Source: Candidatus Tayloriibacteriota bacterium (GTDB lineage Bacteria; Patescibacteriota; Minisyncoccia; Phycocordibacterales; CAIRYW01). Taken from it: 64,000 bases of DNA. Location of the stretch: the NCBI GenBank assembly GCA_029288615.1, contig JARIGV010000003.1, positions 1,068 to 65,067 on the forward strand, given 5' to 3'. Position numbers and translations under genes: made by a program. Below are positions 1 to 63,658 of the stretch, piece after piece; the stretch's first letter is position 1; each line of letters starts with the position of its first letter. The notes beneath the pieces are model-generated. The model had not been told where the DNA came from and did no database searches. It saw only the letters and a program-made list of their open reading frames with translations.

Positions 1-1
1 A

Positions 2-631: not shown

Positions 632-645
632 TAAAATCCAAAAAA

Positions 646-706: not shown

Positions 707-715
707 TCTCCGTTA

Positions 716-1006: not shown

Positions 1007-1114
1007 TTGGCCCAAATAGTCTGCATCACCATCCGCCTCACAGCGGGTAATTTTTTTATAAAAGTTTTCTCAATTTTTTGCATTTTTTTATACTGGACAT
1101 GATAAAATTATTTC

Positions 1115-3165: not shown

Positions 3166-3174
3166 AGAAGAATA

Positions 3175-3552: not shown

Positions 3553-3570
3553 GTTATTTAAATAAAATTA

Positions 3571-3849: not shown

Positions 3850-3862
3850 AACTTAAGTATAC

Positions 3863-4357
3863 CTAATTGTTAACATCGACGGAAGAACTGTCTCGAAAAA
3901 AGATCGGCACTTTAATCATTGGCACATTACCAAGTCCTGATGGGTCATCTTTTGTAAGAACAATAAATCCTCTATTATCTGTCGTATCTTGCCATGTAAT
4001 ATCTGCGGAGAAATCGATCATACCTGGCACTGTCCAATCAGTTGCTGCATGTGCTTGCCCTTGACCTAACACCACTCCATCTTCATCAATAACTTCCACC
4101 GGAAATGTTGCCTCGAAAAACCAATTATTTTTTGCCTTTCCTGTGACATGTACTGGATTTGAAATCGTTGAGAGTGGAATAGGGGTTGCGACGCTAATTG
4201 TCTTCGCTACTTTGCTTTCAATACCACCACTTGCAATGGCCACAGATGTCCCTGCGACGATTCCATCCGCTGTCTTCCAGATACCTAAGGATGCAAGACC
4301 GGCGCAAAGCGCGATGATTGCGAGATATATATAATCTTTTGTAGTTTCTTTGGGCAT
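3863..4357 (-). CDS. Membrane-anchored Gmad2 immunoglobulin-like domain protein
   Basis: N-terminal TM anchor, then WFFEATFPVEVIDEDGVVLGQG...GFIVLTKDDPSG, typical of the Gmad2/GerMN Ig-like domain. Confidence 0.5.
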   Translation of the reverse strand: MPKETTKDYIYLAIIALCAGLASLGIWKTADGIVAGTSVAIASGGIESKVAKTISVATPIPLSTISNPVHVTGKAKNNWFFEATFPVEVIDEDGVVLGQGQAHAATDWTVPGMIDFSADITWQDTTDNRGFIVLTKDDPSGLGNVPMIKVPIFFRDSSSVDVNN

Positions 4358-4366
4358 ATATGTATT

Positions 4367-4729
4367 TTACATTTTTCTTTCAAACATAGCATTCAAAGTG
4401 ACAAAGACAATACCGAGGATAAGTGTCCCACTTAGATCCGTGATCGATATATAAGAAGAATTTCCGAATGAAATGTTTGATAAAAGAACAGCCTGAATGA
4501 TTGCGGCAAAAAGAAACACAAGCCCATTGAGATGTAAAACCGTATTTCCTTTCGTTGGTTTTATAAAGGCTGTGAGAAGAAAGCTAATTCCACTCAACGC
4601 AAAAAGCAGTGTTTCAAAGCCGCTTTGCAAAGCTATACCATACACCCCAACAAAGGGGTTCTCTGTAAGAGACGCTACAGCAATACCAAGTGTGACAAGG
4701 CCAAAAGCTATAAGTGTATTTCTATGCAT
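4367..4729 (-). CDS. Hypothetical integral membrane protein (4 TM)
   Basis: 120 aa, four hydrophobic helices. No family recognised. Confidence 0.4.
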   Translation of the reverse strand: MHRNTLIAFGLVTLGIAVASLTENPFVGVYGIALQSGFETLLFALSGISFLLTAFIKPTKGNTVLHLNGLVFLFAAIIQAVLLSNISFGNSSYISITDLSGTLILGIVFVTLNAMFERKM

Positions 4730-4736
4730 GAGCTAA

Positions 4737-5501
4737 TTATTGGAGTACAAAGGAAGCTTTGACAGTCACCATGATGTCTTTGTTCACACTTTGTGTGTCG
4801 TATGATCCATAGTCTGATACATCGACAGAATTTGGTGCTGTTACTTGTACCACTCCAGATGACGCTGACTTAAGCGCACCTACCTTTTTGCCAGAACTTT
4901 CCGCAAGCTTCTCTGCTCTTGCCTTTGCATCTTTGATCGCATCCGAAAGAAGTGATACTCGAAGGTCAGGAAGTTTTGAATAATAGTATTCGAGACTATT
5001 TGTAGAAATGAGCACGCCTTTTCCAGCAAGTGATGCTGCCCCATTTGCAGTTGCAGTCACTTGATCTGTACTGCTTGATGAAAGAGAAATATTTTGAACA
5101 AGATTATATTGCTTCTCAGAATTATAATTTTGATTGTTGTAGCTGTAGTCTTCATTCATGAAAACTGGTGAGATTGTATAGTCGTTTTTTGAAAACCCTT
5201 GTGAGGTCATATACACATCAACAGCGGCAGCATCTTTTGCAATCGCTCCATATCCGTCTTTTAGCGTACTCGCCTTTACCGTGCGAGTAATAGAAGCATT
5301 CCATTTTGCCATATCAGCAACAACAGAAGTTTTTGCAGAGCCAGTCACTGTGACATTGTTATCAAATGATCGGATCTTGTAGAAAGTAATCGCACCGATA
5401 ATAGTCGAGAGAATGAGTGCTGCTCCGACAATAAGTGATGGAAAAATAAAGCGGGTGTCGTTCATGTTATGAATTATACTTCTCTTTAATTTTAGCAACA
5501 A
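4737..5501 (-). CDS. Secreted SIMPL/DUF541-like protein (tentative)
   Basis: N-terminal TM/signal, then ...VTVTGSAKTSVVAD...VQVTAPNSVDVSD..., reminiscent of SIMPL-domain periplasmic proteins. Weak recognition. Confidence 0.35.
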   Translation of the reverse strand: MLLKLKRSIIHNMNDTRFIFPSLIVGAALILSTIIGAITFYKIRSFDNNVTVTGSAKTSVVADMAKWNASITRTVKASTLKDGYGAIAKDAAAVDVYMTSQGFSKNDYTISPVFMNEDYSYNNQNYNSEKQYNLVQNISLSSSSTDQVTATANGAASLAGKGVLISTNSLEYYYSKLPDLRVSLLSDAIKDAKARAEKLAESSGKKVGALKSASSGVVQVTAPNSVDVSDYGSYDTQSVNKDIMVTVKASFVLQ

Positions 5502-6000
5502 TCTCCTCCACTACTTCCTCCAATTTTTTATCACCCGTATTAATAGTTAAATCAAAAGAATTTCCATTTTCAAGATCGGTAATGTTGTAGTAATTTGCAA
5601 ATCGTTCGTAAATGGCATCTTCTCGAGCTCGTGTTTCGCGACGAACTTGCTCGACATCTTTCCCTTCTCTTAATGCTATACGTTCTGTACGAAGATTAAA
5701 ATCACAGATAAATCTGATCTTAAAAGAATCTGGAATAAAGTGCCATGCAAGCCGAGCCTCCACAACAAAGTTGTCATTATTTTTCCCAAATTCTTCTGTG
5801 ATTTTATCTCTTTCTCTGTCGTACTTATCATCTGTCTTTGAGAGCTGCTCAAGTTCATCGATTGTCATACCAAATTTTGCCGCAGTCTCTCTCGCAAAAT
5901 TGCCCGCTGAATAAAATTTATAGCCAAGTTTTTCTGCCACTGCTTTTCCTGCACTTGTCTTTCCTGTTCCTGCCATTCCGAAAATAGTTATTTTTGCCAT
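5467..6000 (-). CDS. Cytidylate kinase-like (archaeal-type CMP kinase / AAA) family protein
   Basis: P-loop GMAGTGKTS at the N-terminus; 177 aa; overall similarity to short (d)CMP kinase family proteins. Overlaps the upstream gene by 35 nt. Confidence 0.6.
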   Translation of the reverse strand: MAKITIFGMAGTGKTSAGKAVAEKLGYKFYSAGNFARETAAKFGMTIDELEQLSKTDDKYDRERDKITEEFGKNNDNFVVEARLAWHFIPDSFKIRFICDFNLRTERIALREGKDVEQVRRETRAREDAIYERFANYYNITDLENGNSFDLTINTGDKKLEEVVEEIVAKIKEKYNS

Positions 6001-6023
6001 ATGAATATTTTACAACTTTAATC

Positions 6024-7787
6024 TTATTTTATGAATCCCTTGTACTGATGATTCCAGAAATTAAAATAAATTCCCTTAAGCGCAAGAAGCGTCTTGTGGT
6101 CTCCTTCCTCCACAATTTGGCCTTTCTCCATCACAATAATACGGTCCATCTTCTCGATCGTTGAAAGCCTGTGCGCAATGACAATAGTTGTTTTTCCATG
6201 CATGAGAGCTGTAAGAGCTTCTTTAATGTGAGTTTCAGAAACACTATCGAGTGCGCTCGTCGCTTCATCGAGAATAAGAATTGGCGCATTTTTAAGAATT
6301 GCGCGAGCGATCGCAACACGCTGTCTTTCTCCACCAGAAAGCTTCACGCCACGCTCACCCACCAGTGTCTCATATCCATGTGAAAGGTTTTCAATGAATT
6401 CATGTGCATGCGCTTGTTTTGCAGCTTCTATAATTTCCTCTTCTGTCGCATCAGGTTTTCCGTAGGCAATATTTTCGCGAAGGGTTCGATGAAAAAGAAT
6501 TGGATCCTGTGGCACATAAGAAATAGTCGAACGAAGATCGTCTTGTGTGATCTTTCGAATGTCTTGTCCATCGATTGTAATCGCACCTCCTGTTACATCA
6601 GCAAAACGAAGAAGAAGTTTTGTAATGGTCGTCTTTCCCGCACCAGATGTACCCACAACACCGATCTTTTCTCCCGGTGCGACATAGAGATTAAAATCTG
6701 TAAGCACTTCTTTGCTATTTTTATAAGAGAAACCAACATGATCAAAAACAATCTCTCCAGCTTTTATTTTTAATGTCTCTGGATGTCTCGGATCGGTAAT
6801 CTCAATGTCTTTCTCGATGATATGAGCAAAGTCTGTAGCATTGGTGTATGCATCGCTAAATTGTCTAAATGAACGGCCAAGTCCGCTCAAACGATTAAAA
6901 AGCGTGTTGCTGTAAGACATCACAAGCACAATGGTACCTGCTGTTGTCATACCCTTGCTCCAGAGAAAAATACTTACAAAAACAAGAGAGCTTTGTGCAA
7001 GAAGTGTGATGGCACCGTTTATTGAGAAAGAGTTATTGGCAACAGTCCATGAGCGTGATCGGGCCACTCTTTCTTCTTCAAGTACTTCATCAAAATATTT
7101 TCCTTCTCTTGTTTTTGAAGAAAATAATTTTAGATTAAGAATATTTGTAATGACATCAGAAAGCACACCGGTAGTTCGTGCTTCTTTTTCTCCTCGTTCT
7201 CGTTCAAGTGGGATTCGTTTTTTTGTCCTGACGAGAATTGCGTACGCAAGGAGAACAAACCACCCAAAAGCGACAAAGCCAAGCGTTGCAGATGTTCTAA
7301 ATAACACAAAAAGAATACCAAGAATGTTGATGACAGCATAGAGAAAATCCTCAAAGAAAAGCGCAGACATTGTTTCAAACGCAGAAGAGAACCTTCGCGC
7401 TTTCGTTACAAGTGATCCTGCAAAATTGTCTGTGAAAAATTGATATGAATGCCGCGACAGATGATTGAGTGCATAGGATGCAATTCTTGCTTCTCCTTTC
7501 GAGGTTGCCGTCGATTCAATATATTCGTATGTACGTGAAAAGAAATACTGAAGCACGTTCACTCCAAGCAAAAGATAGAAAAAGTAATAGATACGGGAAT
7601 AATTCTCCGGCGAAGCCAAAGAATCAATAATGCCTTTGTAGTAGAGCGGCGAAAGAATACCGCCAAAGAAAGCCCCCAAGCTGTAGAAAATACCAGCGAT
7701 AAGAAACATCCAGATGGATTTACCCAAAGCAGCTTTGTAGTGCACCCAAATACTTTTTTGGGTTGTTTTTTCTTGTTCTCGAGCCAT
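6024..7787 (-). CDS. ABC transporter, fused permease/ATP-binding protein (MsbA-like exporter)
   Basis: Six N-terminal TM helices; Walker A GTSGAGKTT, signature LSGGERQRVAIARAI, Walker B ILILDEATSALD, H-loop AHRLST. Confidence 0.85.
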   Translation of the reverse strand: MAREQEKTTQKSIWVHYKAALGKSIWMFLIAGIFYSLGAFFGGILSPLYYKGIIDSLASPENYSRIYYFFYLLLGVNVLQYFFSRTYEYIESTATSKGEARIASYALNHLSRHSYQFFTDNFAGSLVTKARRFSSAFETMSALFFEDFLYAVINILGILFVLFRTSATLGFVAFGWFVLLAYAILVRTKKRIPLERERGEKEARTTGVLSDVITNILNLKLFSSKTREGKYFDEVLEEERVARSRSWTVANNSFSINGAITLLAQSSLVFVSIFLWSKGMTTAGTIVLVMSYSNTLFNRLSGLGRSFRQFSDAYTNATDFAHIIEKDIEITDPRHPETLKIKAGEIVFDHVGFSYKNSKEVLTDFNLYVAPGEKIGVVGTSGAGKTTITKLLLRFADVTGGAITIDGQDIRKITQDDLRSTISYVPQDPILFHRTLRENIAYGKPDATEEEIIEAAKQAHAHEFIENLSHGYETLVGERGVKLSGGERQRVAIARAILKNAPILILDEATSALDSVSETHIKEALTALMHGKTTIVIAHRLSTIEKMDRIIVMEKGQIVEEGDHKTLLALKGIYFNFWNHQYKGFIK

Positions 7788-8796: not shown

Positions 8797-9438
8797 TCAA
8801 TTATTATTGCTCATAAGTATAGCTCTTGCAGGTGCTCCATCTATACCACTAAATTTAAGTGGCACACATGAAAGAAAATACTCACCTTCAGACACATCTT
8901 TAAGATTTAATCCTTCGACAATTGGGATTTTTTTTGAAAGAAGCGCGATGTGAGGTCTGTTATCCTTGCTTCCTCGCTGCTTCACGGAAATATAATCAAT
9001 TCCAAAAAGCGCTACACCAATTTCTGCTAAGTATTCTGCCCCATCACCTGACAGATATATGTAATCGGGTCGAAAGCTCTCAAAGCCCATATTACTATTC
9101 TTTGTCTTTGCCAAAACCCTTTCGCCTTTCTGAATATTTTTGCTTTCAAGTGAAGCCCTTGTTATCTCGACGTTCTCAAAGTCAAAATCCAACACACGGC
9201 ATGGCCCGACGAATGCTTCGAGCGGAAATACATCAATTTCACCTGCTCCTTCTATTGCATGCATCGGCGCATCGATATGTGTTCCTGAATGCGAACCCAT
9301 TGTGATTTTTGAAAGATGACTTGAATCGTCCGGGAGGTGTGCGTGATTTTCAATTGTTACGGGCACATTGCCTGGATAGACAATAGTGTCGTTTGTAAGC
9401 GGAAGTGATATATCTATAATCTTAGTTATTTTTTCCAT
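8797..9438 (-). CDS. Cyclase family protein (kynurenine formamidase-like metal-dependent hydrolase)
   Basis: Putative-cyclase motifs HSGTHIDAPMH near the N-terminus; 213 aa. Confidence 0.65.
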   Translation of the reverse strand: MEKITKIIDISLPLTNDTIVYPGNVPVTIENHAHLPDDSSHLSKITMGSHSGTHIDAPMHAIEGAGEIDVFPLEAFVGPCRVLDFDFENVEITRASLESKNIQKGERVLAKTKNSNMGFESFRPDYIYLSGDGAEYLAEIGVALFGIDYISVKQRGSKDNRPHIALLSKKIPIVEGLNLKDVSEGEYFLSCVPLKFSGIDGAPARAILMSNNN

Positions 9439-27667: not shown

Positions 27668-29320
27668 TTAAAGAAAGAGTTTTGCAAGTCTTATTTCAAA
27701 GAATGAAAAATTCGGACCAAGTATTGTTTTTACAGGTGAAAGTCTTCCTTCTTTATCTTTTGCTAAAGATTTTTTCCATGCTTCCGAGATTTTCTTAAAG
27801 CGAGTCGGTGGCAAATAAATATTCTTAAGGTAGAGAATGTCTATTTTTTCTCCTTCTTCAGTAAGCTTTTCAATATGTGAAAGCACTGTTTCTTTTGTAA
27901 GACCTCTCTCTTCAGCAATTTTCTCAAGTGATTTTTTCTCTTCGATGAGCTTCCATGTCTTATGATGTGTCGGCACTTCTTTTTCCTTTTTCACTTTCCC
28001 TAAAGAATTTTTAGAGACAAATTCTTCCTGCATTTTATCTATTTCTTTCTTTCCAGTTTCTTCAAGCCAACTTTCTGATTTCCCCGATTCTTTTCTAAAT
28101 GTTCGGTCCATGTCATGCGCTTCAGGATGGACAAGAAGAGCTGTCTTATTAAAACCCTTGAGTGAAAGCCCTTCAAGACGTCTCACACGTGAAAGCGCCA
28201 CATATCCCATGCCTGGTGTAAAAGAGCGAGAGAGGTCAATCCGTGCCGCATCAAGGCTCATTCCTTGGCTTTTGTGTATTGTAATTGCCCACGCCAAACG
28301 AAGCGGAATCTGTCTTATTTCCGCTCGGATTTTTCCATCTTCTTCAATTCTCCAGCTTTCTGGCACAACCGTAATTTTTCGAGAGTCTAAAGTTTTTACG
28401 ATTGGATTTCCGATATCATCAAAATCTACCACCTCACCAAGTGTTCCGTTCGAATACCCCTTATCAAAAGAATTTTTAACAAACATCACTTTCGCTCCAT
28501 ATTTAAGGAAAAGTCTTTCCGGTGCGAGACAGCTTTTTATAAGAGCCTCAACGAGTCGTGCATTCCCTTTTCTATCCATTTCATACACTTTTTCTCTGCC
28601 TCCAATTTTCGAAAGCTCTGTTTCGTTGAGTTCATCGACATTTATATTGTGTGTCGAAAGTTCTGTTGCAAAAGGTACAGCAAGCTCTTTTCCAACTCGC
28701 TCTTTAAGATGCGAAATAATTTCTTCAGTTACAGAATTTTCACGGATCGCATTAAGAACAGAAAGAAACACCGCATCATCTTGTCGATGAGATTCAGTAA
28801 GATAACAAATTCTAAAATTCATATCCTTCCAGATCTTTGATCTGTATGCGAAATGTCCTTCAGTTTCTCCCGGACGTGAGATCGGCGGGAGCTGGAAGAA
28901 ATCTCCACAGAGTACCACCTGAAGTCCGCCGAAAGGTTTATCGTTTCTTTTGAAGAATTTGCAAAGAGTGTCGAGAAGATCGAAACGAAAATGATGAAGC
29001 ATCGAGATCTCATCAATAATAAGCACTCTCGCCTCTTCATATCTTTTCCAAAGATGTTTTTTTGTCTCAAGATCATCGAGATCTCGTTCTGAAAGCGAGT
29101 CTTTGATGCCAAGCCCGCTCCATGCATGAATCGTCACGCCGCCAAGATGCGTCGCAGCAATCCCCGTCGATGCAGTCACCGCAACAGGAATTCCTTTTTC
29201 TTCCAAGTACGAAATATAAGCTCGAAGTGTGTGCGTCTTACCGCTTCCCGCCGCTCCTGTAAGAAAAACATTCTTTCCAGTCTTTAAAATTGTTAGTGCA
29301 TCAGCGCTTGTCATTGGCAA
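27668..29320 (-). CDS. PIF1-family SF1B DNA helicase with C-terminal helix-turn-helix extension
   Basis: Walker A GAAGSGKTH, LIIDEISML, Pif1 signature GDFFQLPPI, TIHKSQG, ALSRV; C-terminal about 120 aa (helicase-associated HTH-like). 550 aa. Confidence 0.75.
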   Translation of the reverse strand: MPMTSADALTILKTGKNVFLTGAAGSGKTHTLRAYISYLEEKGIPVAVTASTGIAATHLGGVTIHAWSGLGIKDSLSERDLDDLETKKHLWKRYEEARVLIIDEISMLHHFRFDLLDTLCKFFKRNDKPFGGLQVVLCGDFFQLPPISRPGETEGHFAYRSKIWKDMNFRICYLTESHRQDDAVFLSVLNAIRENSVTEEIISHLKERVGKELAVPFATELSTHNINVDELNETELSKIGGREKVYEMDRKGNARLVEALIKSCLAPERLFLKYGAKVMFVKNSFDKGYSNGTLGEVVDFDDIGNPIVKTLDSRKITVVPESWRIEEDGKIRAEIRQIPLRLAWAITIHKSQGMSLDAARIDLSRSFTPGMGYVALSRVRRLEGLSLKGFNKTALLVHPEAHDMDRTFRKESGKSESWLEETGKKEIDKMQEEFVSKNSLGKVKKEKEVPTHHKTWKLIEEKKSLEKIAEERGLTKETVLSHIEKLTEEGEKIDILYLKNIYLPPTRFKKISEAWKKSLAKDKEGRLSPVKTILGPNFSFFEIRLAKLFL

Positions 29321-42003: not shown

Positions 42004-42378
42004 TTATTTGTTGTTCTCCTTCCTTTTATGGATCATAATCTGATTTCCGTCAGGATCTTCCACGAGCACCATATGACATACTCCTGTTTCGTGCGGTTCC
42101 ATAAGGAACTTAGTCCCCGCATCTTTGAGATCTTTTACCGCTGCATCAAAATCTTCAACCTCGAGCGCTACTCCAGGACCAGTTTTTCCAGGATTAAAGC
42201 TTGGTGCACCTTTACCGATCGCAAGCGTATGATCACCCATGTAATATTCGATAAACACAGAATCTTCTCCTTCCCAGACAGATCCCGGTACAAGTCCGAG
42301 TGTCTTTTCATAAAATTCGCGCGCTTTTGGAATATTAACTATAGGGAAACAAACAAATGCAATTTCTTTTATTTTCAT
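42004..42378 (-). CDS. VOC (glyoxalase/bleomycin-resistance/dioxygenase) family protein
   Basis: 124 aa, beta-alpha-beta-beta-beta modules; C-terminal ...VLVEDPDGNQIMI.... Confidence 0.7.
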   Translation of the reverse strand: MKIKEIAFVCFPIVNIPKAREFYEKTLGLVPGSVWEGEDSVFIEYYMGDHTLAIGKGAPSFNPGKTGPGVALEVEDFDAAVKDLKDAGTKFLMEPHETGVCHMVLVEDPDGNQIMIHKRKENNK

Positions 42379-51884: not shown

Positions 51885-52640
51885 TTATAAATGCGCAAAG
51901 TCATACCCTTCTGTGGATAAAATAGGGATGAGCTTTGTTAAAGCCTCTTCAGTTTTTGGAGCATTTGGTCCCCCAAGATGCATGATCACGATATTATCTC
52001 CCGGCTTTATTTTTCCAAGTACCATAGCAACAATTTTCTTTGCATCCATCTGATGTGGATCCTCTGAAATAATCCCATCATCACTTTCTTTGTAGCCAAG
52101 TTTTTTTATAAGCTCGCTGTCGCTTTTATTTCTGCAAAGCCCCGGCAGTCGTACATACGTCGGAGCATTTCCTGTAAGATCAGTAATTATTTCTGTCGCC
52201 TTTTTTATTTCTTCTGTCTTTGCTTTCTCCTGCGTAACGACTGAAAGACCATAGCACCCAACTGTAAATGCCGCATGATCATATGTGTGATTTTGTATTG
52301 AAAAAAGCCCACTCATTGCGGCCGCACGAATCACTCCTGGATACATTTCTGCAAACATTCCTGTCGTGAAAATTGTTGCTGGCACTTCCCTTTCTTCAAG
52401 ATATGAAATAATTCCCGGGCTATACCAAAGCCCAACCTTTCCTTTTTCCGCCTCATCTTTCATGTGAGGAGTCATGTCCGCATCAAAAGTAAGATAGACT
52501 GTACCGATCTTTTGCTTCAAGGGTGATGGAATATTTTGCGCCACAACAGCAGAGGCTTCACAAAAAAACGAAAGAAAAATAAAAACAATAAAGAAATTAA
52601 AATATTTTTTACAGCACCGATCTATTTCTTTCATCCCCAT
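51885..52640 (-). CDS. Polysaccharide deacetylase (NodB-homology, CE4) family protein
   Basis: TFDAD (motif 1, Asp-Asp) and ...QNHTYDHAAF (His-His zinc motif); N-terminal TM. Confidence 0.7.
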   Translation of the reverse strand: MGMKEIDRCCKKYFNFFIVFIFLSFFCEASAVVAQNIPSPLKQKIGTVYLTFDADMTPHMKDEAEKGKVGLWYSPGIISYLEEREVPATIFTTGMFAEMYPGVIRAAAMSGLFSIQNHTYDHAAFTVGCYGLSVVTQEKAKTEEIKKATEIITDLTGNAPTYVRLPGLCRNKSDSELIKKLGYKESDDGIISEDPHQMDAKKIVAMVLGKIKPGDNIVIMHLGGPNAPKTEEALTKLIPILSTEGYDFAHL

Positions 52641-53167
52641 ATAAACACAGCAAGCGCAAGTGCTGTAACAAGAATCTCTGCAATTCCAGAAATACTTTTA
52701 AAATGATTTTTAATAACTCCACTCCAGCGCGATATTCGTGGCACATCTTTCTTCGCCCATTCAAATGGAAAAGTAAAAAATTTATCCGACAAAGGCCAGA
52801 ACCATTTGGCCCCAAAGACAAATGAATCACAAAGTAGATGGCTCCACGGTGAGAGCCATACCAAAAGTCCCAAAGCTTTTACAAAATCACTTGCAAAAAT
52901 ATCTCCGCAGAAAAAGACAACGCAGCCAAAAAGAAACCAAAAGATCGCGGTGTGTGTAATATAGCCGCGGTGCCCATCGGTGACTGCAGGAGTCAAAGTT
53001 TTCTTTTTGAGGAAACTTAAGAAAATATCAAAATCTGGACCATCACCTAAAAGGGTACCGATCGTATAGATTGCAATATTTTCATTTCCAGAAAATTGAA
53101 AACCAGCAACATGAAGCACAGCATATGTTGTCAGATATCCAGCAGCTAAATGTCCCGGTAAGATCAT
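52631..53167 (-). CDS. Membrane-bound metal-dependent hydrolase family (YdjM/DUF457-like) protein
   Basis: N-terminal MILPGHLAAGYL and GDGPDFD motifs typical of this family; 4-5 TM. Confidence 0.5.
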   Translation of the reverse strand: MILPGHLAAGYLTTYAVLHVAGFQFSGNENIAIYTIGTLLGDGPDFDIFLSFLKKKTLTPAVTDGHRGYITHTAIFWFLFGCVVFFCGDIFASDFVKALGLLVWLSPWSHLLCDSFVFGAKWFWPLSDKFFTFPFEWAKKDVPRISRWSGVIKNHFKSISGIAEILVTALALAVFIWG

Positions 53168-54261
53168 TCTCTTATTCTACGGCGCAAAAGCACATACAAC
53201 AAGGTAACGATCGCAGCGCATACTAGAAAGATTTTTGTATTTATATTATTACTTTGACTCTGTGTTTCAGGCATTACCTCGGCAGAAGCTTTGCCAATTT
53301 TCATGATCGCAAATCGTGTTAAGTGAGATACTGAAAATGTCACAGTATTTCCATCTATTTTAATGTTCGGTACTTCACTCCATGTATTTTTTGTCGTATC
53401 AAACCAAAATACACCGATCTTCTCGCCAACAAGAGACTCCGGCACAGTCAGTGTAATCGTAAGCGGTTTGCTAAATGTATGAATCTCCTTTCCTGATGGA
53501 TCTTTTGCAACAATATCAAAGAAAACTTTTCCAAGGGTTTCTATGATCACATCGAAAGTGGCATTTACAATGTGTGTTGTGACTGTAATTTTTTGAGGAT
53601 AAGCGCCGGCAGGTACATACACTTTCGCGTGTGAAAGTCCTGACAAATTAGACGAATCATTTGGAAAAACTTTCTTTGGATCATTCTTGTTAGTCACTAT
53701 GTGATTGACGACAGGATAAATAGATGGAAAAAAATTGCTATCACTATGTATGACGCCAGCACTTCCAATTCGTGCCGCTATTGAAGAGGTTCCACTATTT
53801 TGTGTATTTGAAACAGCGTTGCGCACATCACAGAGATTACAATCAAAATTTACTCTACCCACAGCATCTCCTTCATTTCCTGCTATACCACTCCATTTTC
53901 CATCTGTTCCAATTGTCACTCCACTCATAGAAAGCCAACCGAGATTTGGAACCCATGCAGAACCACTGAGATGTCCATTCGCATCAATAGAAACTCCCTG
54001 CCCAGAATTCGTCGGACTGAAATTGATCCAACCATACTCTTTGCTCCACGCATATCCTGTTACAGAAGCGTCTGTTACAACAACGCCTTGATACTCACCA
54101 TTATTTTCCGGGGCAAAATTGATCCATCCCATATTTTCTCCCCATGCATATGAATGCGAAGCATCAACAGTTTGTGATGAAGCAAAGACAGAAGTGGAAC
54201 AAAGAAAAAAAAGTGAGACAAGAATGATGAGTGCGTTATTTTTTCTCACATTTCGAGCCAT
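53164..54261 (-). CDS. Secreted repeat protein (G.AW....GWI.F aromatic repeats, possibly glycan/cell-wall binding) with C-terminal TM anchor
   Basis: Signal peptide; three or more repeats YAWGENMGWINFAPEN / YAWSKEYGWINFSPTN / SAWVPNLGWLSMSG; C-terminal hydrophobic helix + RRRIRE. Confidence 0.45.
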   Translation of the reverse strand: MARNVRKNNALIILVSLFFLCSTSVFASSQTVDASHSYAWGENMGWINFAPENNGEYQGVVVTDASVTGYAWSKEYGWINFSPTNSGQGVSIDANGHLSGSAWVPNLGWLSMSGVTIGTDGKWSGIAGNEGDAVGRVNFDCNLCDVRNAVSNTQNSGTSSIAARIGSAGVIHSDSNFFPSIYPVVNHIVTNKNDPKKVFPNDSSNLSGLSHAKVYVPAGAYPQKITVTTHIVNATFDVIIETLGKVFFDIVAKDPSGKEIHTFSKPLTITLTVPESLVGEKIGVFWFDTTKNTWSEVPNIKIDGNTVTFSVSHLTRFAIMKIGKASAEVMPETQSQSNNINTKIFLVCAAIVTLLYVLLRRRIRE

Positions 54262-54263
54262 AA

Positions 54264-57200
54264 CTATTCTGTAGTCGCTTGATTATCTGGAGTATTTGAA
54301 ACTTGCTCACTCTGTGAATCATCTTGTACTGGGGTTTGAGAAGAATCAGGTGTTGATGTTGCTACAACCTCGGGAGTTGAGGTACTCAAAGTATCTGGCG
54401 AAACACTCATGATATCTGGAGTCGACGTTGATTCCTCAGTAGATGATGTCGCATCTTTAAAAGAAGAAGGTGCTATGTTTTGTTTCGAAAGAAGCTCCTG
54501 AAGTTCTTTTTCAGTGACACATGTGTCACCCACACACAATTTACTTGTATCCACTTCATGAGCAAAAATTTTGTCGAAAATTCCCTCCGCCAATGTATTC
54601 ACCTTCGCATAAAGCTCTTTCACCGCTTCAATGATTACAGCGGTAAGATGTGTGTAATCAAGAGTGTAGTAACCATTTGGTGCCAAATGTACCAAATCTG
54701 GGAATTGCTTTGCCACATCTTGTGCAATAAGACCATAATTTTTAGTTTGTCCGTTCATCATCGGATACATAGAAAGATACGTGCTATTCCAATTGAATGT
54801 CACTGCATCAAGCGCTGTGAGTTTATCGAGAGTCGATGTCGTATCTGATGCGACTGCAAGATTTGTAATATTTGTTTTAAGTCTCATATCTGAGAAAGAG
54901 CTCATACATCCATTTGAAAACTGTGAACAAATATCACCTGATGCAAAAATATCTCCGCCGACATCAAGCTTGTGAGTTGGCGACAAAACGCCAACTCCAA
55001 GATTTCCCGATGTTGTAAGGACCAATTGCGAACCAGTCGCATCATCTGCCCCTCCCCACATACCACTGACCGACAGCGCACTACTTGCTTTTGTAATGAA
55101 AACATTTCCAGAAGGACCATTGTTATCATTCACCAAAGGAAAATAACGAGTCGGAATGTCTTCGCCACTATCCATATGAACACTTAGATTGCCAAGATTG
55201 TGGTTAATAATAATGGCATTATTGAAATTACTTGCGGTACCAATAATAGTGACGGGATCAATTTCAACAGCGTAATGACCACTCGCCACACTATTATCAC
55301 TATCAAATTCAAACACTGTTGATCGACTACCATCACTTACTGTCACTGTGTCGCCGTCAGCGGGCTGAGTATTAATTTTTATTGATCCTCGTGCGGGTGC
55401 AGCCACACTTGTTACAGAATTCGGCATACCAGCATTGAAAGTAAGATTGCCATTAGAATTTCCAATTGCTCCATTTACATCGAGAGCATACGCAGGTGTT
55501 GCAGTACCAATACCAATATTTTCTCCTCCGGTGTATGTCACATATGTTCCATCATCTGTAAAAGGCGAAGTGCTTGCTGCTTTGCCATCAGAAAAGAGCG
55601 AGCCGTTATGATAAATATTTCCCGTGAAATTAATGTCTCCGCTCACATCAAGATTAAATCCAGGCGCAACATTATTCACACCAACAAATCCATTCGATAC
55701 CGTAAGCGGATGTACGACACCATCACTTGGCAGTGCCATGTGATCTGCAGGAATTATTTGGAGTGATTGGTTATTGCTCTCCCATGAAAGATGCAAACAC
55801 TCTCCCGTCGCATCAGAACCTACATAATGCTCGATCTTTATTGCAGTCCATTTATTTTTTACAAGATTTACCGTCGCGGTGTGTGCTGTACATGTCGCCT
55901 GGTCATTCCAGTCGTCGATCACCAAATTTCCATCAATCCACAAACGCACTCCATCGTCGGCGCTCAAATGAATCGTATACGTTTCGCTATAGTCTGCTTT
56001 GATAAATCCAGAGATATTTCCAGCGTAATTATTTTCTACACCTTGTGGAGCATAATCATCGACGTCGACTGGACCAAATTGCGTTGAAAGGATCATGCCG
56101 CCGATTTCAGGATTTGATCCTCCATACCAAAATGAATAGAGTCCGCCGACGTTACCGACAAATGATGTATTTGTTACTCCAAAAGTTCCATACACATCGA
56201 GTTTATGTAGTGGTGTTGTTGTACCGATACCGACATTTCCATTTCCTTTAAATGTCACATTTGGTGTGAAAGTACTTGAATCTCCGCCATAGCCAAATTG
56301 CATATCAGAACTCGAAGTGTCTGTGTACATCTGGAGCAAATAATTTTGGATTCCAAAACCATATGCTGCACCTGGAGCACCATCATACAAAGCAATCTTG
56401 TTACCGAGTGCGCTACCAAGAGAAAGTTTTGCGTTGGGGCTATTCGTACCAATACCAACATTCTCATTGCCGTTGTAATACACATTACTGTTATCATCCG
56501 TAAATGGTGATGATCCGCCGCCAGTAAAAGCCACACCATTTTGATAAAGGTTTCCTGAAAAATTCACATCACCATCAACATTGAGAGCATATGAACCCGC
56601 ATTCGTGCCAATACCAACTCCAGTACCAAAAAATCCCGTTCCATGCACCTGCAAATCCTCGCCATTTCCTGTACCCGTATTGTTGTCACCACCCCAAGCA
56701 TTTCCAACAAGAACATTTCCGTTTGTTGTCACCATAAATGGGAAACTTTCATCTCCACCGCCACCTGTGTGTCCTGGTGTATCGTACACAACAGACATCA
56801 CAGGTTTACCGTCTCGCGCATCAAACCGAAGAATGGAACCACCGAGACTTGTATCGCGATCTCCAAACTGTGCGAAGTTGAGTCCAAGATTGAGAGTCTG
56901 TCTATTTGATTCATCGTTCAAACCATCTCCGATAAATCCTCCGCGCAAATTTCCAATCGTACTTGGAGTTATATAAAAAGCATTTGCTTGTGTTATTCCG
57001 TTTACATCAAGTGACTCTGTCGGATTATTCGTGCCAATACCGACATAGTTACCTCCGTTGTAATAAACTTCTGTACCATCATCGATGAACGGCGAAGAAC
57101 TCGCGCCGAGTCCTGCATACAGCTCACCATTTTTATAAAGATTTCCTGTGAAATTAATGTCGCCGTTGACATCAAGATTGAAAAAAGGATGATCAGTACC

Positions 57201-58190
57201 AATACCGACATTTCCAAATGGAGTAAGTCTCATGATTTCTCTCAAACCAAAATCTCCCCACTCTCCCTGATTTGTACTGAACGCTAGCCCTGCTCCGCCA
57301 GGAGCGTATGCTACAGATTGAATACTTGCAGCCGGGTCAGCAAAAAAGGGCACATTCGTATCACGGAAAGCAATATTTGAACCTTCGTTGTCAGATCCAA
57401 AATTACTTTGAAGTGTAAGCAGTGTATTCTGGCCGCTAGATGTTGTTGCAATATCTAGCATCGATAATGGATTCGTCGTACCGATGCCGACAAATCCATT
57501 ATTCACGATATTCATCACAGGATTTCCATTTGTCGCAAAGACAATTTGTCCTTCGCCATTGAGATCACTGTCTGCTGCAAAAGAAAGATCGTCAGGAGTT
57601 GTGATACCCGTTGTTGTCGATGCAGATGTACCCATGAAAGTACCGTCCGGAAAATAAAGACCGTTGCCAAGTCCAGAAATTTTTAGATTACCGTTTACAT
57701 CAAGTGTGGCAGTTGGATTTGTCGTGCCAATACCAACACTTCCATTTGTATATGTCAGCACTCCTTCACCTTGATCTGTCCACTGACTTCCAGAAAAAGG
57801 AGTTCCGTTTTGGTAGAGAGTTCCTGTGAAATTGATATCGCCGTTTACATCAAGATTGTAGTTTGGCGCATTATTTCCAATACCCACAAACCCGTCGTTG
57901 TAATAAATACTTCCCTCGTTGTTTGACCATTGTGAAGAAATTGGCAGTGTTACTGTACAGTTATCTTCCGTCGGCGCACATTCTGGGTTTAGAGTTTCAC
58001 CAGGATTATACGGACTATTATTCCATGCTGCGGAAGCCCGAAAAGGCGTAAAAAGTATAAAAAATAAAAGTGAGAATATGAGTACTAAATGCTCTTTTTT
58101 GGGCATGTATCGAGTGCGAGAAAGTTTTTTCAAAAAACACCGAAGACACTTCTTCGGCCGGTCATCATGGGTTTTCTTTCGCAAGCTCAA
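54264..58190 (-). CDS. Giant (1308-aa) secreted surface protein: tail-fibre-like G(N)VGIGT/DVNGDINFTGxLYxNG repeats, PA14 domain, C-terminal peptidase-S74 intramolecular-chaperone domain, S/T/P-rich tail
   Basis: Signal/TM at the N-terminus; eight or more copies of the short repeat pair. PA14-like block ...GFIKADYSETYTIHLSADDGVRLWIDGNLVIDDW... (about nt 55700-55975). S74-like block SFSDMRLKTNITNL...LDAVTFNW...GLIAQDVAKQFPDLV...LDYTHLTAVIIEAVKEL (about nt 54545-54880). Acidic S/T/P-rich C-terminus. Confidence 0.7.
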   Translation of the reverse strand: MSLRKKTHDDRPKKCLRCFLKKLSRTRYMPKKEHLVLIFSLLFFILFTPFRASAAWNNSPYNPGETLNPECAPTEDNCTVTLPISSQWSNNEGSIYYNDGFVGIGNNAPNYNLDVNGDINFTGTLYQNGTPFSGSQWTDQGEGVLTYTNGSVGIGTTNPTATLDVNGNLKISGLGNGLYFPDGTFMGTSASTTTGITTPDDLSFAADSDLNGEGQIVFATNGNPVMNIVNNGFVGIGTTNPLSMLDIATTSSGQNTLLTLQSNFGSDNEGSNIAFRDTNVPFFADPAASIQSVAYAPGGAGLAFSTNQGEWGDFGLREIMRLTPFGNVGIGTDHPFFNLDVNGDINFTGNLYKNGELYAGLGASSSPFIDDGTEVYYNGGNYVGIGTNNPTESLDVNGITQANAFYITPSTIGNLRGGFIGDGLNDESNRQTLNLGLNFAQFGDRDTSLGGSILRFDARDGKPVMSVVYDTPGHTGGGGDESFPFMVTTNGNVLVGNAWGGDNNTGTGNGEDLQVHGTGFFGTGVGIGTNAGSYALNVDGDVNFSGNLYQNGVAFTGGGSSPFTDDNSNVYYNGNENVGIGTNSPNAKLSLGSALGNKIALYDGAPGAAYGFGIQNYLLQMYTDTSSSDMQFGYGGDSSTFTPNVTFKGNGNVGIGTTTPLHKLDVYGTFGVTNTSFVGNVGGLYSFWYGGSNPEIGGMILSTQFGPVDVDDYAPQGVENNYAGNISGFIKADYSETYTIHLSADDGVRLWIDGNLVIDDWNDQATCTAHTATVNLVKNKWTAIKIEHYVGSDATGECLHLSWESNNQSLQIIPADHMALPSDGVVHPLTVSNGFVGVNNVAPGFNLDVSGDINFTGNIYHNGSLFSDGKAASTSPFTDDGTYVTYTGGENIGIGTATPAYALDVNGAIGNSNGNLTFNAGMPNSVTSVAAPARGSIKINTQPADGDTVTVSDGSRSTVFEFDSDNSVASGHYAVEIDPVTIIGTASNFNNAIIINHNLGNLSVHMDSGEDIPTRYFPLVNDNNGPSGNVFITKASSALSVSGMWGGADDATGSQLVLTTSGNLGVGVLSPTHKLDVGGDIFASGDICSQFSNGCMSSFSDMRLKTNITNLAVASDTTSTLDKLTALDAVTFNWNSTYLSMYPMMNGQTKNYGLIAQDVAKQFPDLVHLAPNGYYTLDYTHLTAVIIEAVKELYAKVNTLAEGIFDKIFAHEVDTSKLCVGDTCVTEKELQELLSKQNIAPSSFKDATSSTEESTSTPDIMSVSPDTLSTSTPEVVATSTPDSSQTPVQDDSQSEQVSNTPDNQATTE

Positions 58191-59452: not shown

Positions 59453-59911
59453 ATGAATAAATTCCCGTTTCTTCCTACAGCACAGCCTGGAACACTTCCA
59501 ATCTACTCCACCACAAAACCCTCAAAGACCTTCACTGACGTGCTCTTCCGGGCTTCCGGACGATCCTCATCATGCATATGCGACCTCTGCGGGCGAATGC
59601 ATTTTGACACTGAGGGTGAAGGCATGGAGGATGAAGAGTATGCAGGCTGGCTTACCAATCAAAAAAGCGAACCCGAGCGGTATATCGGGACTGACGGCGG
59701 ACCCTCGCATGTCATCTTCGCTGGAGTTACAGTCATCTACGACTGCCCCTGCAATGTACTTCGCCCTTTTGAAGAGTTGTTCCTCAACCATCCTGGACTG
59801 ATCTGCGGATTGATCTTCGAGACCTCGAAGGAACGCCTGCGAGTCGCAAGCCGTGACAATCAAAATGCAGCGACGGCATTCGAGGCACTCAAACTTCTCC
59901 AGACAGTATAA
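59453..59911 (+). CDS. Hypothetical Cys-containing protein (higher GC)
   Basis: 152-aa ORF with CICDLCGR ... CPCN (possible zinc ribbon). An alternative 116-aa ORF lies on the opposite strand (59570..59920). Confidence 0.3.
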   Translation: MNKFPFLPTAQPGTLPIYSTTKPSKTFTDVLFRASGRSSSCICDLCGRMHFDTEGEGMEDEEYAGWLTNQKSEPERYIGTDGGPSHVIFAGVTVIYDCPCNVLRPFEELFLNHPGLICGLIFETSKERLRVASRDNQNAATAFEALKLLQTV

Positions 59912-59952
59912 TCGCGTCATCGACGCGAATTTTTATTTAATGAATATAAAAA

Positions 59953-59971
59953 ATGACGCCCTTGGCGTCAT
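59953..59971 (-). terminator. Hairpin (atgacgcc-ctt-ggcgtcat) preceded by A5 on the plus strand (= T5 after the hairpin on the minus strand)
   Basis: 8-bp perfect stem. Oriented to terminate a minus-strand transcript, but the nearest minus-strand gene 5' of it is only a gene fragment (see the pseudogene at 60080..60163). Confidence 0.5.
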
Positions 59972-60079
59972 TTAGAAAACTATTTCTTGTTCTTCTTTGG
60001 TTTCTTCTTTTCTTTTTTGTGTCCGTCTCCTTTTGCCATAATTATTTTTTATTGCTCTTAAACTAACATAGTTATTTTA

Positions 60080-60163
60080 TCATCTTTCTAAGAGTTCTAC
60101 TTCATATCCATCAGGGTCCGTAATGAAAGCCATCTTACGCTCTCCTTTTTGGAATTTTTCTCG
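60080..60163 (-). pseudogene. 3'-terminal remnant of a VOC/glyoxalase-I-like gene (encodes ...REKFQKGERKMAFITDPDGYEVELLER*)
   Basis: Reverse-strand reading frame bounded by in-frame stops at 60164-60166 and 60080-60082. Peptide matches the conserved C-terminus of glyoxalase I-type VOC proteins (AFxxDPDGYxIELxE). No upstream coding sequence remains; the helicase island begins immediately 5' of it. Confidence 0.5.
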
Positions 60164-60318
60164 TCAGTCGTCAGGCAACTGAGCAAAAAAAAGGGGGGTA
60201 AAGAAACACTGAAGCAGAGCACTGCGTAGTGCCAGATTACCTTATCATATCCTCCAACCTTAATTCTTGTGTGTAAAATTAGGCATTTTTATTTAAATAT
60301 TTGTTCTGGTTTGTTAAT

Positions 60319-63027
60319 TTATTCATTTAATTTTAGGAGCAATAACGCAATATCTTTCTTTGTATTTCTTTTTTCTAAGCCATTCAATATTTTATTTTCT
60401 GTTTCCGGAGTCCAATATATTTTTAGCTTCTCTTTTGCTCTCGTGATAGCTGTATAAAAAATATTATGTGTAACCATCTCCTCTATCTCATTAGTTATGA
60501 CAATTTTAACTGAATTGAATTCCAATCCTTGTGCCTTATGAATAGAGACAGCGTAAGAAACCTGGAATGGAACTATCGCTTTTGAAGATGATTCATCATC
60601 ATCTTCATCTGTACTAACATACATATTTACAGAAAAACGAATAATAGATTTACTTCCATCAGAAGTGTTACCAATTAACTGGAAGTCGTAGCCTTCGACA
60701 TCAAACTCATTTACTACCTTATCGATCTCAATGTCAAATTCAATTTTATTTGAGGTTTTTTTGATACCGACGATCTTACCCTTAAGGTTGTTATAAATAA
60801 GCGGTGAGTATCTGTTCATCTCATTGAACAGAACAGGATCTCCTATTTTGTAAGTATGCACGCCCCAATATATAGGGCTATTTTTATTATTACTCTGAAG
60901 GAATCTGTTGATGTTATTGATCCCATATAGACCGTCATAATTCAGACAGAGCACAATCTCGTCATCTTCAGCACTCACAAAGAAAGATTTGTCCAGCTTT
61001 ATGGAGTACTTATTCTTTGTAATATGTTCAAGAATATCATTTTCTATGTTTCTTACTTTATTCCAGAGAGTAATGAGCTTCTCGTTGGTACTTCGATATG
61101 GCTTAGTCAACTCAAATCTTGAGGTCTGAGGAACGAAAGATTGGGCTATGTTAAACCAATTTCCAAAGTTTATAGACTCAATCTGAAACACATCACCAAC
61201 CAGGACAAGAAGCTTGGAGTCTGCCTTTTCAAGTACCAATCGCATATCTGAATTACTGACGGTGCTACACTCATCAATGATCAATATATCGTAATCTGTA
61301 TCAGTATTTTTCAGTGAAATAAATTTACTGATTGTCTTATATGTGCAGTTAGCAGCTTGCACTTTTCTCCTAAGGTTGTCTACTGCGGGATTAGTATTTG
61401 CGAGATAAAGCTTCGTCTTATCATTAAAAAAGTTCGAGATGTGATTTATCATCGTCGACTTTCCCGTCCCTGCAGCACCGTACACCAATGCAACTTTTGA
61501 TTTTTCAAAAAGTTTTTTTAACGCATCCTTTTTCTCTTCGCAGTCAACGATGTGTGTGGATGTTTGAAGCCAAGAATCTATAGAATTTGAATAGTTTCTA
61601 ATACCTGAAGCAGAAAGATCGGTCAATTTTCTAATGATATATAACGCAGCTTCTTCATAACCTTTTATATATACATGGTCCTTAAACTTTTCCAACTTTC
61701 GATATTCATGTTTGAAATACAATAAAGAATTGTATTTCTCAATTAACATGTCGACATTTTTAAATCCTTTAGTTTCACTTATTGGAGTATAAAGCTGACC
61801 ATCAATCTCATTTTTATTCGTTATGAACTTTGCCAACATTTCATGTTCTCGTCCTGTCGCATCGATACAATCGAATAAGTCATGTATTCTTGGCTTATGA
61901 TTAAGCGGCGATGAATTAAAAGGCATTTCATCAAACGGGATACAGCCGTATTCCAGTTTTAAATTTGAAAGTTTGTCGCACTCATCAATACTGTACTGCT
62001 GTTTAATAATCTTATTATTAAGCCTATATAGGAGATATCTGGTTATATTTGTCCCTGGCTTCTTGGCTTTTATAAAAGCACGGACTTTATCCAATACGTC
62101 AAAGATATATTTAGTCTTTGCAGTACTAACTATCTTAGCCCTAACACTTTCGTAGTAATCATCTGACAAATCAATAAACTCTATAAGATTAAGTCCAGTC
62201 TTGGTCAAAAATCTCATCAGTTCCTTATACTCATTTGCATTTTGGATCTTAGGATCTTTTCCAAATATTTTTGCAAAATTATTCAACTCGCAAGGGCGAA
62301 TAGATACTTCCCAATCATTGATGATTTGAATGGGCATATTCTTGTCTATGATCTTAATATTGTCAGTAGTTAAGGACAGTTTAACTGCATAATTATCCGA
62401 AATATCTAACCTAGTGAAAGCGATCACTCTATCAAACTTACTTGTATTGTCGTTTGCGCGTGTAAAAGTAACTTCGTAGTAAACTTCGTAATTAACAAAA
62501 AAGGGCTTTATCTTCTGAATGTAAAATCTATCACTGTGAACACCTTTAGGGTCGACGGGTTTTAGTTGAATTATCTTTTCAGCGATCTTTTCGTGATACT
62601 CTTTGAGGACCGAGTCAGTATTCATTGGGAAAACATCTATATTCTTGAGCACTTCCAAGTCGTAAGTATTTTTTAGATACGACTTTATCTTCAACATATA
62701 CTCATAATACTTAAGCATCAATCTTTCTGAGTTTTCTTCGTCAGGGGTATAGTGAGAAATCGTCTTTTGAAGAAGCTTGTGAAAATTACTCAAAAATCGG
62801 AGTTCACCTCTAGTTTTAACGTAGGTTTCAGCTTTTTTTATATTCTCATATGAGTTGTCAAAATCTTGACCATTACTAAATGCTTTTAATGAGATGTGAT
62901 CAACAAAATTTCTAAGTTGTGACAAAATATTCTGCGACAATAACCCTCTCTCTGAAGTATCAAATCTGTCGATGTTGGCAGATATAGACTTGTCTATAGT
63001 TAAAATTTCTGTGTCAATCTTATTCAT
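60319..63027 (-). CDS. Large (902-aa) protein: uncharacterised approximately 500-aa N-terminal region fused to an SF1B (RecD/Pif1/Dda-like, AAA_30 + UvrD_C_2-type) helicase
   Basis: C-terminal half: Walker A GAAGTGKST, Walker B ILIIDECS, LVLVGDVFQIESI, TKPYRS, SIHKAQGLEFNSV, YTAITRAKEKL. N-terminal half: K/N/I/Y-rich, no motif recognised. The gene and its flanks (about 60170-63100) are markedly more AT-rich than neighbouring genes. Confidence 0.7.
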   Translation of the reverse strand: MNKIDTEILTIDKSISANIDRFDTSERGLLSQNILSQLRNFVDHISLKAFSNGQDFDNSYENIKKAETYVKTRGELRFLSNFHKLLQKTISHYTPDEENSERLMLKYYEYMLKIKSYLKNTYDLEVLKNIDVFPMNTDSVLKEYHEKIAEKIIQLKPVDPKGVHSDRFYIQKIKPFFVNYEVYYEVTFTRANDNTSKFDRVIAFTRLDISDNYAVKLSLTTDNIKIIDKNMPIQIINDWEVSIRPCELNNFAKIFGKDPKIQNANEYKELMRFLTKTGLNLIEFIDLSDDYYESVRAKIVSTAKTKYIFDVLDKVRAFIKAKKPGTNITRYLLYRLNNKIIKQQYSIDECDKLSNLKLEYGCIPFDEMPFNSSPLNHKPRIHDLFDCIDATGREHEMLAKFITNKNEIDGQLYTPISETKGFKNVDMLIEKYNSLLYFKHEYRKLEKFKDHVYIKGYEEAALYIIRKLTDLSASGIRNYSNSIDSWLQTSTHIVDCEEKKDALKKLFEKSKVALVYGAAGTGKSTMINHISNFFNDKTKLYLANTNPAVDNLRRKVQAANCTYKTISKFISLKNTDTDYDILIIDECSTVSNSDMRLVLEKADSKLLVLVGDVFQIESINFGNWFNIAQSFVPQTSRFELTKPYRSTNEKLITLWNKVRNIENDILEHITKNKYSIKLDKSFFVSAEDDEIVLCLNYDGLYGINNINRFLQSNNKNSPIYWGVHTYKIGDPVLFNEMNRYSPLIYNNLKGKIVGIKKTSNKIEFDIEIDKVVNEFDVEGYDFQLIGNTSDGSKSIIRFSVNMYVSTDEDDDESSSKAIVPFQVSYAVSIHKAQGLEFNSVKIVITNEIEEMVTHNIFYTAITRAKEKLKIYWTPETENKILNGLEKRNTKKDIALLLLKLNE

Positions 63028-63110
63028 GATTTGGAATTATGTTTGTACACTACCATACAAAGTTGAAGAAAAAATGAAGAAAAGATAAAGTAGGACTTGG
63101 CAAGATCCTT

Positions 63111-63314
63111 ATGTTTAAAGCTCCCAACAAGGCCACTGTAGAGCCTGAATCTACATCTCAAACAAAGCCTTCAACTTTTTTTGAAGACCTGGAGAAACGA
63201 CTCCGGAGCCCGGAATATATCGCTTCTGTCGAGGAGATTCGGCGGCGGCAATGGGAAGATTTCGCTCGAGGTGAGCGGGAGTTTGAGGAATGGTGTGGCA
63301 AACCAGATCGCTAA
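63111..63314 (+). CDS. Hypothetical small acidic protein
   Basis: 67-aa ORF, GC-richer than the adjacent island. No motifs. Confidence 0.3.
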   Translation: MFKAPNKATVEPESTSQTKPSTFFEDLEKRLRSPEYIASVEEIRRRQWEDFARGEREFEEWCGKPDR

Positions 63315-63376
63315 GGCACTTTGTGCCTATTTTTTATAAATGTACTTGGGAGTTGATAAAAAAACCGAAAGGTGTA

Positions 63377-63658
63377 ATGTGTACCGAAAAGCTCTCTATG
63401 GACCAAAAACCGACCGCAACCGCGGAAAAGCCTCAAGCTGAAAAACCTCACGTTACCGTCCTCTCACCGGTGTTGGAGAAATTCCAAAGCGGTAAAGAGT
63501 TGTCACAGCTCCTACCTGCAACTTACGAGCTCCGAGCTGGTGATATCATTCCGGCCTGGTGGCACGGTGAGGAGCGCGGCACTGCGGAAATCATCAACGT
63601 CGAGCCGGCTGAGAAAAATAAATCGATGGCTCGAGTGACATACAAAAAGGCATCCTGA
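63377..63658 (+). CDS. Hypothetical protein
   Basis: Start trimmed to the ATG preceded by aaaggtgtaatg (SD-like); 93 aa; no motifs. Confidence 0.3.
   Translation: MCTEKLSMDQKPTATAEKPQAEKPHVTVLSPVLEKFQSGKELSQLLPATYELRAGDIIPAWWHGEERGTAEIINVEPAEKNKSMARVTYKKAS

Follow-up and report, generated by a model that had tools for sequence, protein, structure and literature searches.

Remnants of a glyoxalase-I-like VOC gene, probably decayed in place, beside a candidate defence helicase in Candidatus Tayloriibacteriota

Introduction

In the course of reductive genome evolution, bacterial pseudogenes accumulate small indels and nonsense mutations and lose internal segments. The locus described here lies in a 64-kb stretch of a Candidatus Tayloriibacteriota contig, hereafter called the window, and resembles such pseudogenes in its several independent inactivating changes, its deletion bias and its loss of invariant residues. 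The only particular point that sets it apart is its position directly 3' of a newly acquired gene. The closest described proteins are the glyoxalase I-like members of the VOC superfamily (PF00903; TIGR00068, NF050074), with which the remnant shares an N-terminal LHTRxxV and a C-terminal AFxxDPDGYxVELLE motif, and whose size fits its ancestral length of about 125 aa. Unlike them, it is a pseudogene: its frame is shifted, about 65 codons are gone from its interior and an invariant Trp has given way to a nonsense codon. The closest VOC family comprises more than 2300 members of 126-140 aa. Because intact members score under the NCBIfam glyoxalase I cut-offs (closest intact homolog: 68.9 bits, cut-off 120, and 69.7 bits, cut-off 165), the family is referred to here as Glo-I-like VOC and not as proven glyoxalase I.

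Two further known systems are relevant to the locus. PADLOC PDC-S53 is a RecD/Dda-like SF1 helicase and a candidate single-gene phage defence; the neighbouring 902-aa protein matches it end to end, but the helicase is not part of the pseudogene. No paper mentioning PDC-S53 was found in our literature search. A hairpin downstream of the pseudogene resembles Rho-independent terminators: its 10-bp stem is rich in G+C, the loop has 3 nt and a U-run comes after it. This hairpin follows a 19-codon ORF and faces a second terminator, that of a convergent plus-strand gene. The features of the locus are compiled in Table 1.

Table 1. Features of the VOC pseudogene locus and its surroundings, in window positions.
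Feature	Position	Strand	Remarks
Helicase gene, 902-aa SF1 helicase	60319..63027	minus	AAA_30, UvrD_C_2; PADLOC PDC-S53 match
Whole VOC (glyoxalase-I-like) pseudogene	60080..60286	minus	207 nt, compared with about 378 nt for an intact gene
Start codon ATG (60286-60284) and single stray base C (60283)	60283..60286	minus	read from sequence
N-terminal remnant LILHTRIKVGGYDKVIWHYAVLCFSV	60205..60282	minus	family codons 3-29, one codon deleted
Deletion junction, 26 nt, tctttaCCCCCCTTTTTTTTgctcag	60179..60204	minus	C6 at 60198-60193, T8 at 60192-60185; read from sequence
C-terminal remnant LPDD-stop-REKFQKGERKMAFITDPDGYEVELLER	60083..60178	minus	family codons 95-126
VOC stop codon	60082-60080	minus	TGA
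19-codon Lys-rich ORF MAKGDGHKKEKKKPKKNKK-stop	59980..60039	minus	between pseudogene and terminator
Intrinsic-terminator-like hairpin	59951..59973	minus	10-bp stem, 3-nt loop, then UUUUUUAUAUU; folding and terminator scan
Convergent terminator-like hairpin	59912..59928	plus	directly after the stop of the 152-aa gene 59453-59911

Results

The minus strand from 60163 to 60083 reads as the 27 codons of REKFQKGERKMAFITDPDGYEVELLER, followed by the TGA stop and then by a TAA. The first-pass annotation of this DNA had taken the peptide for the remnant of a glyoxalase-I-like VOC gene, and our searches agree with it. When the peptide was compared with all PDB sequences, the 17 matches up to E=10 were without exception glyoxalase I or VOC proteins (best E=1.8e-4), and they fall at the C-terminus or at a domain end. 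A protein database search with the peptide padded with the read-through upstream residues also led to VOC proteins, for example one with ...EIWPDGWREKFQTGSKMAFVTDPDGYEVELLERQ. A tblastn search of all six frames of the window with a repaired full-length homolog (from the metagenome contig L002, see below) gave a match at 60175-60083 with E=9.5e-11, and a family HMM built from 119 full-length homologs scored the C-terminal piece with 31.7 bits (E=4.5e-11, HMM positions 96-126). Pfam PF00903 covered the peptide with its last 17 profile positions at 12.9 bits (E=0.15) and did not reach the threshold of 20.6 bits. The remnant is thus placed in the VOC superfamily (PF00903) by the family HMM, tblastn and PDB, with Pfam alone below threshold. 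On account of the PDB, database, tblastn and HMM matches we regard the peptide as the genuine C-terminus of a Glo-I-like VOC gene of about 125 aa and not as a chance resemblance.

The C-terminal stump could instead have been kept as a translated micro-ORF of 17 aa (MAFITDPDGYEVELLER): distant homologs share all 17 residues unchanged, and its ATG is preceded, at a distance of 8 nt, by a GGAG of Shine-Dalgarno type. However, the GGAG falls where the family has its Gly106-Gly107 codons, no other part of the family is as strongly conserved as this stretch, and the short 'MKMAF...' proteins in the databases are gene-caller products of frameshifted contigs. Since independent conservation as a small gene was not found either, we consider a retained micro-ORF highly improbable.

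Three lesions were noted in the C-terminal piece: W95 is replaced by L (TTG, 60178-60176), W99 by TGA (60166-60164) and G107 by E. At the start of the peptide the family consensus is ...eIWPDdWREKF..., compared with ...LPDD-stop-REKF... in the window, so that the TGA aligns with Trp99 and the TTG with Trp95, both of which are Trp in 119 out of 119 family members. The VOC homology continues for four codons beyond the TGA, up to 60178; family positions 91-94 have no match in the window, and the match resumes at position 95/96. The in-frame stop that the first-pass annotation had placed directly upstream of the peptide is therefore present, but it stands in for an invariant Trp and is not the edge of the homology. 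Because it is aligned with this invariant Trp and TGA is a normal stop in this genome, the codon is best read as a TGG to TGA nonsense mutation inside the homologous region. That TGA is a real stop can be seen from the genes 53164-54261, 52631-53167 and 8797-9438, which end in TGA with more stops just beyond. A recoding of UGA to Trp or Gly was also considered for the in-frame TGA and was rejected, as TGA ends real genes and the long ORFs of the window are intact under table 11.

The annotation had further stated that nothing of the first approximately 100 residues was present. Contrary to this, we found family codons 3-29 one base after an ATG (Table 1), in another frame than the C-terminal piece. 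The ATG is located 32 nt past the helicase stop TAA (60321-60319), and only one base is left of codon 2, so that the frame is shifted directly after the start codon. The N-terminus of the VOC family follows M-x-(V/I/L)-F-L-H-T-R, with the consensus vFLHTRvRVsDLdrSIkwY.dhLGF at family positions 3-29, of which the remnant retains seven invariant residues (L5, H6, T7, R8, V11, Y21 and F27); the replacements are R10K, D13G, L14Y, S17V and G26C. Taken alone, the piece is a weak match (tblastn E=0.85 window-wide, family HMM 0.3 bits). It gave no match at E<=10 in PDB or Pfam, and the joined 60-aa conceptual protein gave none in Pfam. In a search of the six frames of the window with the family HMM it nevertheless ranks second, above the true paralogue at 42004-42378, and in block-wise dinucleotide shuffles of the whole window (40 replicates, 5.1 M residues) its score was reached in 0 of 40 cases, the best value being -0.2 bits. 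According to this control the chance expectation for such a match within a 140-residue target is below about 1e-4. The piece lies on the same strand as the C-terminal piece and in family order, one base after the ATG, in the 140 nt that separate the helicase from the C-terminal piece. It is this position, together with the collinearity and the shuffle control, that leads us to accept 60282-60205 as the surviving 5' part of the VOC gene; the context makes the match convincing. Of the two pieces the C-terminal one has decayed less, which may be due to chance.

Between the two pieces, the 26-nt junction with its C6 and T8 tracts stands in place of family codons 30-94 (195 nt; about 65 codons), and the frame is shifted again. 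If the net loss (169 nt) and the two bases lacking in codon 2 are added to the 207 nt of the pseudogene, the sum is 378 nt, or 126 codons with the stop included, and this reconstruction fits family members of 126-129 aa. A functional VOC gene is an uninterrupted ORF for two beta-alpha-beta-beta-beta modules, about 120-140 aa in all; here the frame is shifted after the ATG, codons ~30-94 are absent and a TGA stands at Trp99. In comparison with E. coli GloA, the deleted codons 30-94 would hold two of the four metal ligands, and by this analogy the remnant cannot be an enzyme. Regarding base composition, the G+C content of the pseudogene (0.411) equals that of the window (0.405) and of the intact paralogue (0.413), with 0.338 for the helicase gene. 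Because of this agreement with the window average and the paralogue, the pseudogene looks like resident DNA.

One of the lesions coincides with a homopolymer tract (C6T8), and VOC genes on two metagenome contigs carry obvious frameshift errors, which raises the question whether the frameshift, the stop and the gap are assembly or sequencing errors in a gene that the organism carries intact. Read errors, however, do not typically remove a net 169 nt and replace at least eight invariant or near-invariant residues, and the remaining genes of the window are long uninterrupted ORFs, the neighbours of 902 and 1308 aa among them. We therefore judge an artefact to be very unlikely.

The pseudogene is also bracketed exactly by a 34-nt imperfect inverted repeat (60049-60082 and 60312-60345, 71% complementary), which spans from the helicase stop to just past the VOC stop and is perfect in its outer 9 nt (TTATTGCTC/GAGCAATAA). 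The repeat is AT-rich and probably a product of chance.

Several further members of the VOC family were encountered. The intact paralogue that had been proposed at 42004..42378 was confirmed as a VOC gene by its PF00903 match (E=6e-13). Two close homologs are located on ENA metagenome contigs: the one on L002 (3508-3941) is broken by an 11-nt tandem duplication (GGTGGCATGAA twice) and the one on L003 (174-596) by an extra T in a T-run. These frameshifts account for artefactual proteins of 29-33 aa in the databases that begin with 'MKMAFITDPDGYEVELLE...'. A third contig, L014, of 917 bp, carries a 5'-truncated VOC ORF at 436-828 (family positions ~45-127), immediately next to a short IF-1/eIF-1A-like gene of 55 aa that runs in the opposite direction; either the truncation is real or the contig is chimeric.

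Upstream of the pseudogene, the PDC-S53 profile matched the helicase over residues 1-897 (profile positions 1-891 of 900) with E=0 and 1334.8 bits, which makes the protein a candidate for defence, PDC-S53 being a predicted system. Full-length homologs with 45-55% identity are found on plasmids of Bacillota, Bacteroidota and Actinomycetota, where they adjoin recombinases and toxin-antitoxin genes. A much closer copy (84% aa and 79% nt identity) is present on the IMG/VR contig IMGVR_UViG_3300014208_000734 (L012, GC 0.35), located between a tRNA-Ser gene and genes for a serine recombinase and type I restriction-modification. In its positions 1-6960 the helicase gene comes directly after the tRNA-Ser and is followed by a convergent 444-aa ORF that resembles a large serine recombinase, and by ORFs that resemble subunits S and M of type I restriction-modification; all these roles are assigned from visual inspection of the translations. 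This arrangement looks like an integrated defence island that was classified as viral. With a G+C content of 0.338 against 0.405, a full-length PDC-S53 match, relatives on plasmids of three phyla and a different context on L012, the helicase gene is low-GC, horizontally acquired DNA, in line with the first-pass view of it as foreign. A DNA search of E. coli genomes gave no match. Another SF1 helicase ORF of the window, RecD2/TraA-like and 550 aa long, lies on the minus strand at 27668-29320 and is unrelated to the first.

Nucleotide homology between the window and L012 is restricted to 63044-60347; it begins 17 nt before the helicase ATG and fades in the last ~10 codons. Because of this restriction the foreign segment is essentially the helicase ORF, and its downstream edge can be put at ~60325-60347, so that 40-60 nt separate it from the VOC ATG (60286) further downstream. 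These boundaries bear on the interpretation given in the first-pass annotation, according to which the VOC gene had been interrupted by the helicase gene or had lost its first ~100 codons to it, leaving a 27-codon 3' stump and an orphaned terminator. It is true that the helicase is foreign DNA directly upstream, that the long VOC ORF is gone and that the 27-codon peptide is a true VOC C-terminus. Yet the ATG and VOC codons 3-29 are found downstream of the helicase stop, the homology does not break off at the stop that was taken for its boundary, the similarity between the cassettes ends at ~60325-60347, ahead of the VOC ATG, and nothing VOC-like was seen by HMM search on the far side of the helicase. 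At an insertion scar the homology would stop at the insert boundary and the other part would be absent or on the far side; here both gene ends are on the same side and the missing part is internal (codons ~30-94). Short direct repeats, which had been suggested as a mark of the insertion boundaries, were searched for around 60319-63050, and none was convincing. A truncation of the VOC gene by the helicase is thus hardly credible. A tblastn match beyond the helicase at 63415-63356 was rejected, as its E of 6.4 is at chance level, it breaks the family order and it falls within an ORF of the plus strand.

The VOC remnant is contiguous with the helicase gene, with a spacer of only 32 nt, and might for this reason have hitch-hiked with the helicase as flanking DNA from a donor instead of being a resident gene. 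Against such a common origin, the G+C content of the pseudogene is that of the host and not that of the helicase, the sequence shared with the closest helicase locus already breaks off within the 3' end of the helicase gene, and a VOC neighbour was present at none of the four inspected loci of helicase relatives. We consider joint transfer unlikely, if slightly less so than a truncation or an artefact.

Downstream of the pseudogene, the hairpin that had been reported as a terminator was found in its place. The sequence 59973-59951 folds with a dG of -13.3 kcal/mol (z=-4.8; 0 of 200 shuffles fold as well) into a stem that is followed by T6, so that with a G+C-rich hairpin and a U-tract it is a putative intrinsic terminator. 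It had been called orphaned; however, the 19-codon ORF at 60039-59980 ends 7 nt ahead of it. The start of this ORF (first 13 codons, MAKGxxHKKExKK) recurs as MAKGESHKKEAKK... on the plus strand at the end of the contig L011 (9293-9332), 550 nt from the alkD homolog of that contig and on the same strand. The AlkD protein of L011, at 55% identity, is among the closest homologs; apart from this, L011 is an unrelated-looking, Paceibacterota-like contig. A degenerate pattern for the small ORF has a single occurrence each in the window and in L011; shuffled sequences and viral contigs contained none. There is hence modest evidence, from sequence recurrence, that the 19-codon ORF is a real conserved gene, and it may encode a conserved, unannotated micro-protein of the candidate-phyla-radiation lineage. 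If the small ORF is real, the terminator would belong to it and would not be an orphan. Since the terminator scan gave no other terminator-like site on the minus strand between the helicase stop and 59973, the helicase transcript would probably end there as well. An Rfam search yielded only sub-threshold matches, one of which, an L31-Firmicutes ribosomal-protein leader at 60027-60071 on the minus strand (20.3 bits, gathering threshold 33.3, E=0.14), overlaps the start of the 19-codon ORF and is probably a chance match.

No close relative with an intact ancestral VOC gene or with a helicase-free locus was found in the genome, metagenome and protein collections that were searched. Pattern scans of genome contigs with the 152-aa neighbour and AlkD revealed no related locus, and a scan of metagenome contigs yielded one homolog of the 152-aa neighbour, 41% identical, on a 1.9-kb contig. 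Nine proteins of the window were found in the protein collection, each as the sole member of its 90% identity cluster. The best AlkD homologs (48-57% identity; one named Candidatus Paceibacterota) share no common gene order and have no VOC gene nearby.

Further observations concern the surrounding region. The exact sequence of a minus-strand 116-aa ORF (59570-59920) is present in the NCBI-derived collection and apparently is the annotated call, and the plus-strand 152-aa ORF (59453-59911), which has its own terminator and shares a CGR.HF...TVIYDCPC motif with the 41%-identical homolog, is absent from that collection; the source annotation of 59453-59920 is probably a wrong-strand gene call. 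The flanks of the helicase and pseudogene (59453-59911 and 63111-63658) have an unusually high G+C content of 0.49-0.51 compared with 0.405 for the window, and neither Pfam nor PHROG gave a match for their ORFs. The variable region may thus be a mosaic that extends beyond the helicase. The 1308-aa ORF (54264-58190, minus strand) contains many NVGIGT(T/N)NP-type repeats, and its C-terminus, judged by eye, resembles a tail-fibre chaperone domain.

Discussion

The explanation that we hold to be probable is that of a resident VOC gene of about 125 codons which decayed in place by several independent lesions, beside a recently acquired helicase that is a defence candidate. The lesions are the frameshift after the ATG, the internal loss of ~65 codons, replaced by 26 nt with C6T8, the TGG to TGA change and the replacement of invariant residues. 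An ORF-sized, low-GC helicase cassette lies immediately upstream, adjacent to the VOC gene, which it did not truncate. Without the cassette, ~100 nt would remain between the VOC ATG and a divergent 67-aa ORF at 63111 on the plus strand, and it is plausible that the cassette landed in this intergenic region and cut the VOC gene from its promoter. The VOC gene would have been silenced in this way, and decay would have followed. The helicase transcript would then read through the pseudogene and the 19-codon ORF and end at 59973-59951. We infer the order of events, helicase arrival and gene decay, as well as everything said here on transcription.

A more specific version of these events is possible, although we rate it as doubtful: the PDC-S53 cassette may have landed exactly between the VOC gene and its promoter and may use the resident promoter and the downstream terminator, with the VOC gene decaying in the 3' untranslated region of the helicase. 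The cassette has no mobility gene of its own in this genome. If this version were true, a defence gene would have been gained by the capture of an existing transcription unit.

In an annotation, 60080-60286 should be listed as a VOC pseudogene; the labels small gene and insertion scar do not apply to it. When a short C-terminal remnant ends at a stop codon, this is no proof of truncation by a neighbouring insert: in the present case the stop is a nonsense mutation within the homologous region, and the 5' end has survived in a different frame. Taken by itself this is an ordinary pseudogene with little import beyond annotation; the locus, at the same time, marks the entry site of a candidate defence helicase in a poorly sampled, probably Paceibacterota-like genome and gives the boundaries of the cassette.
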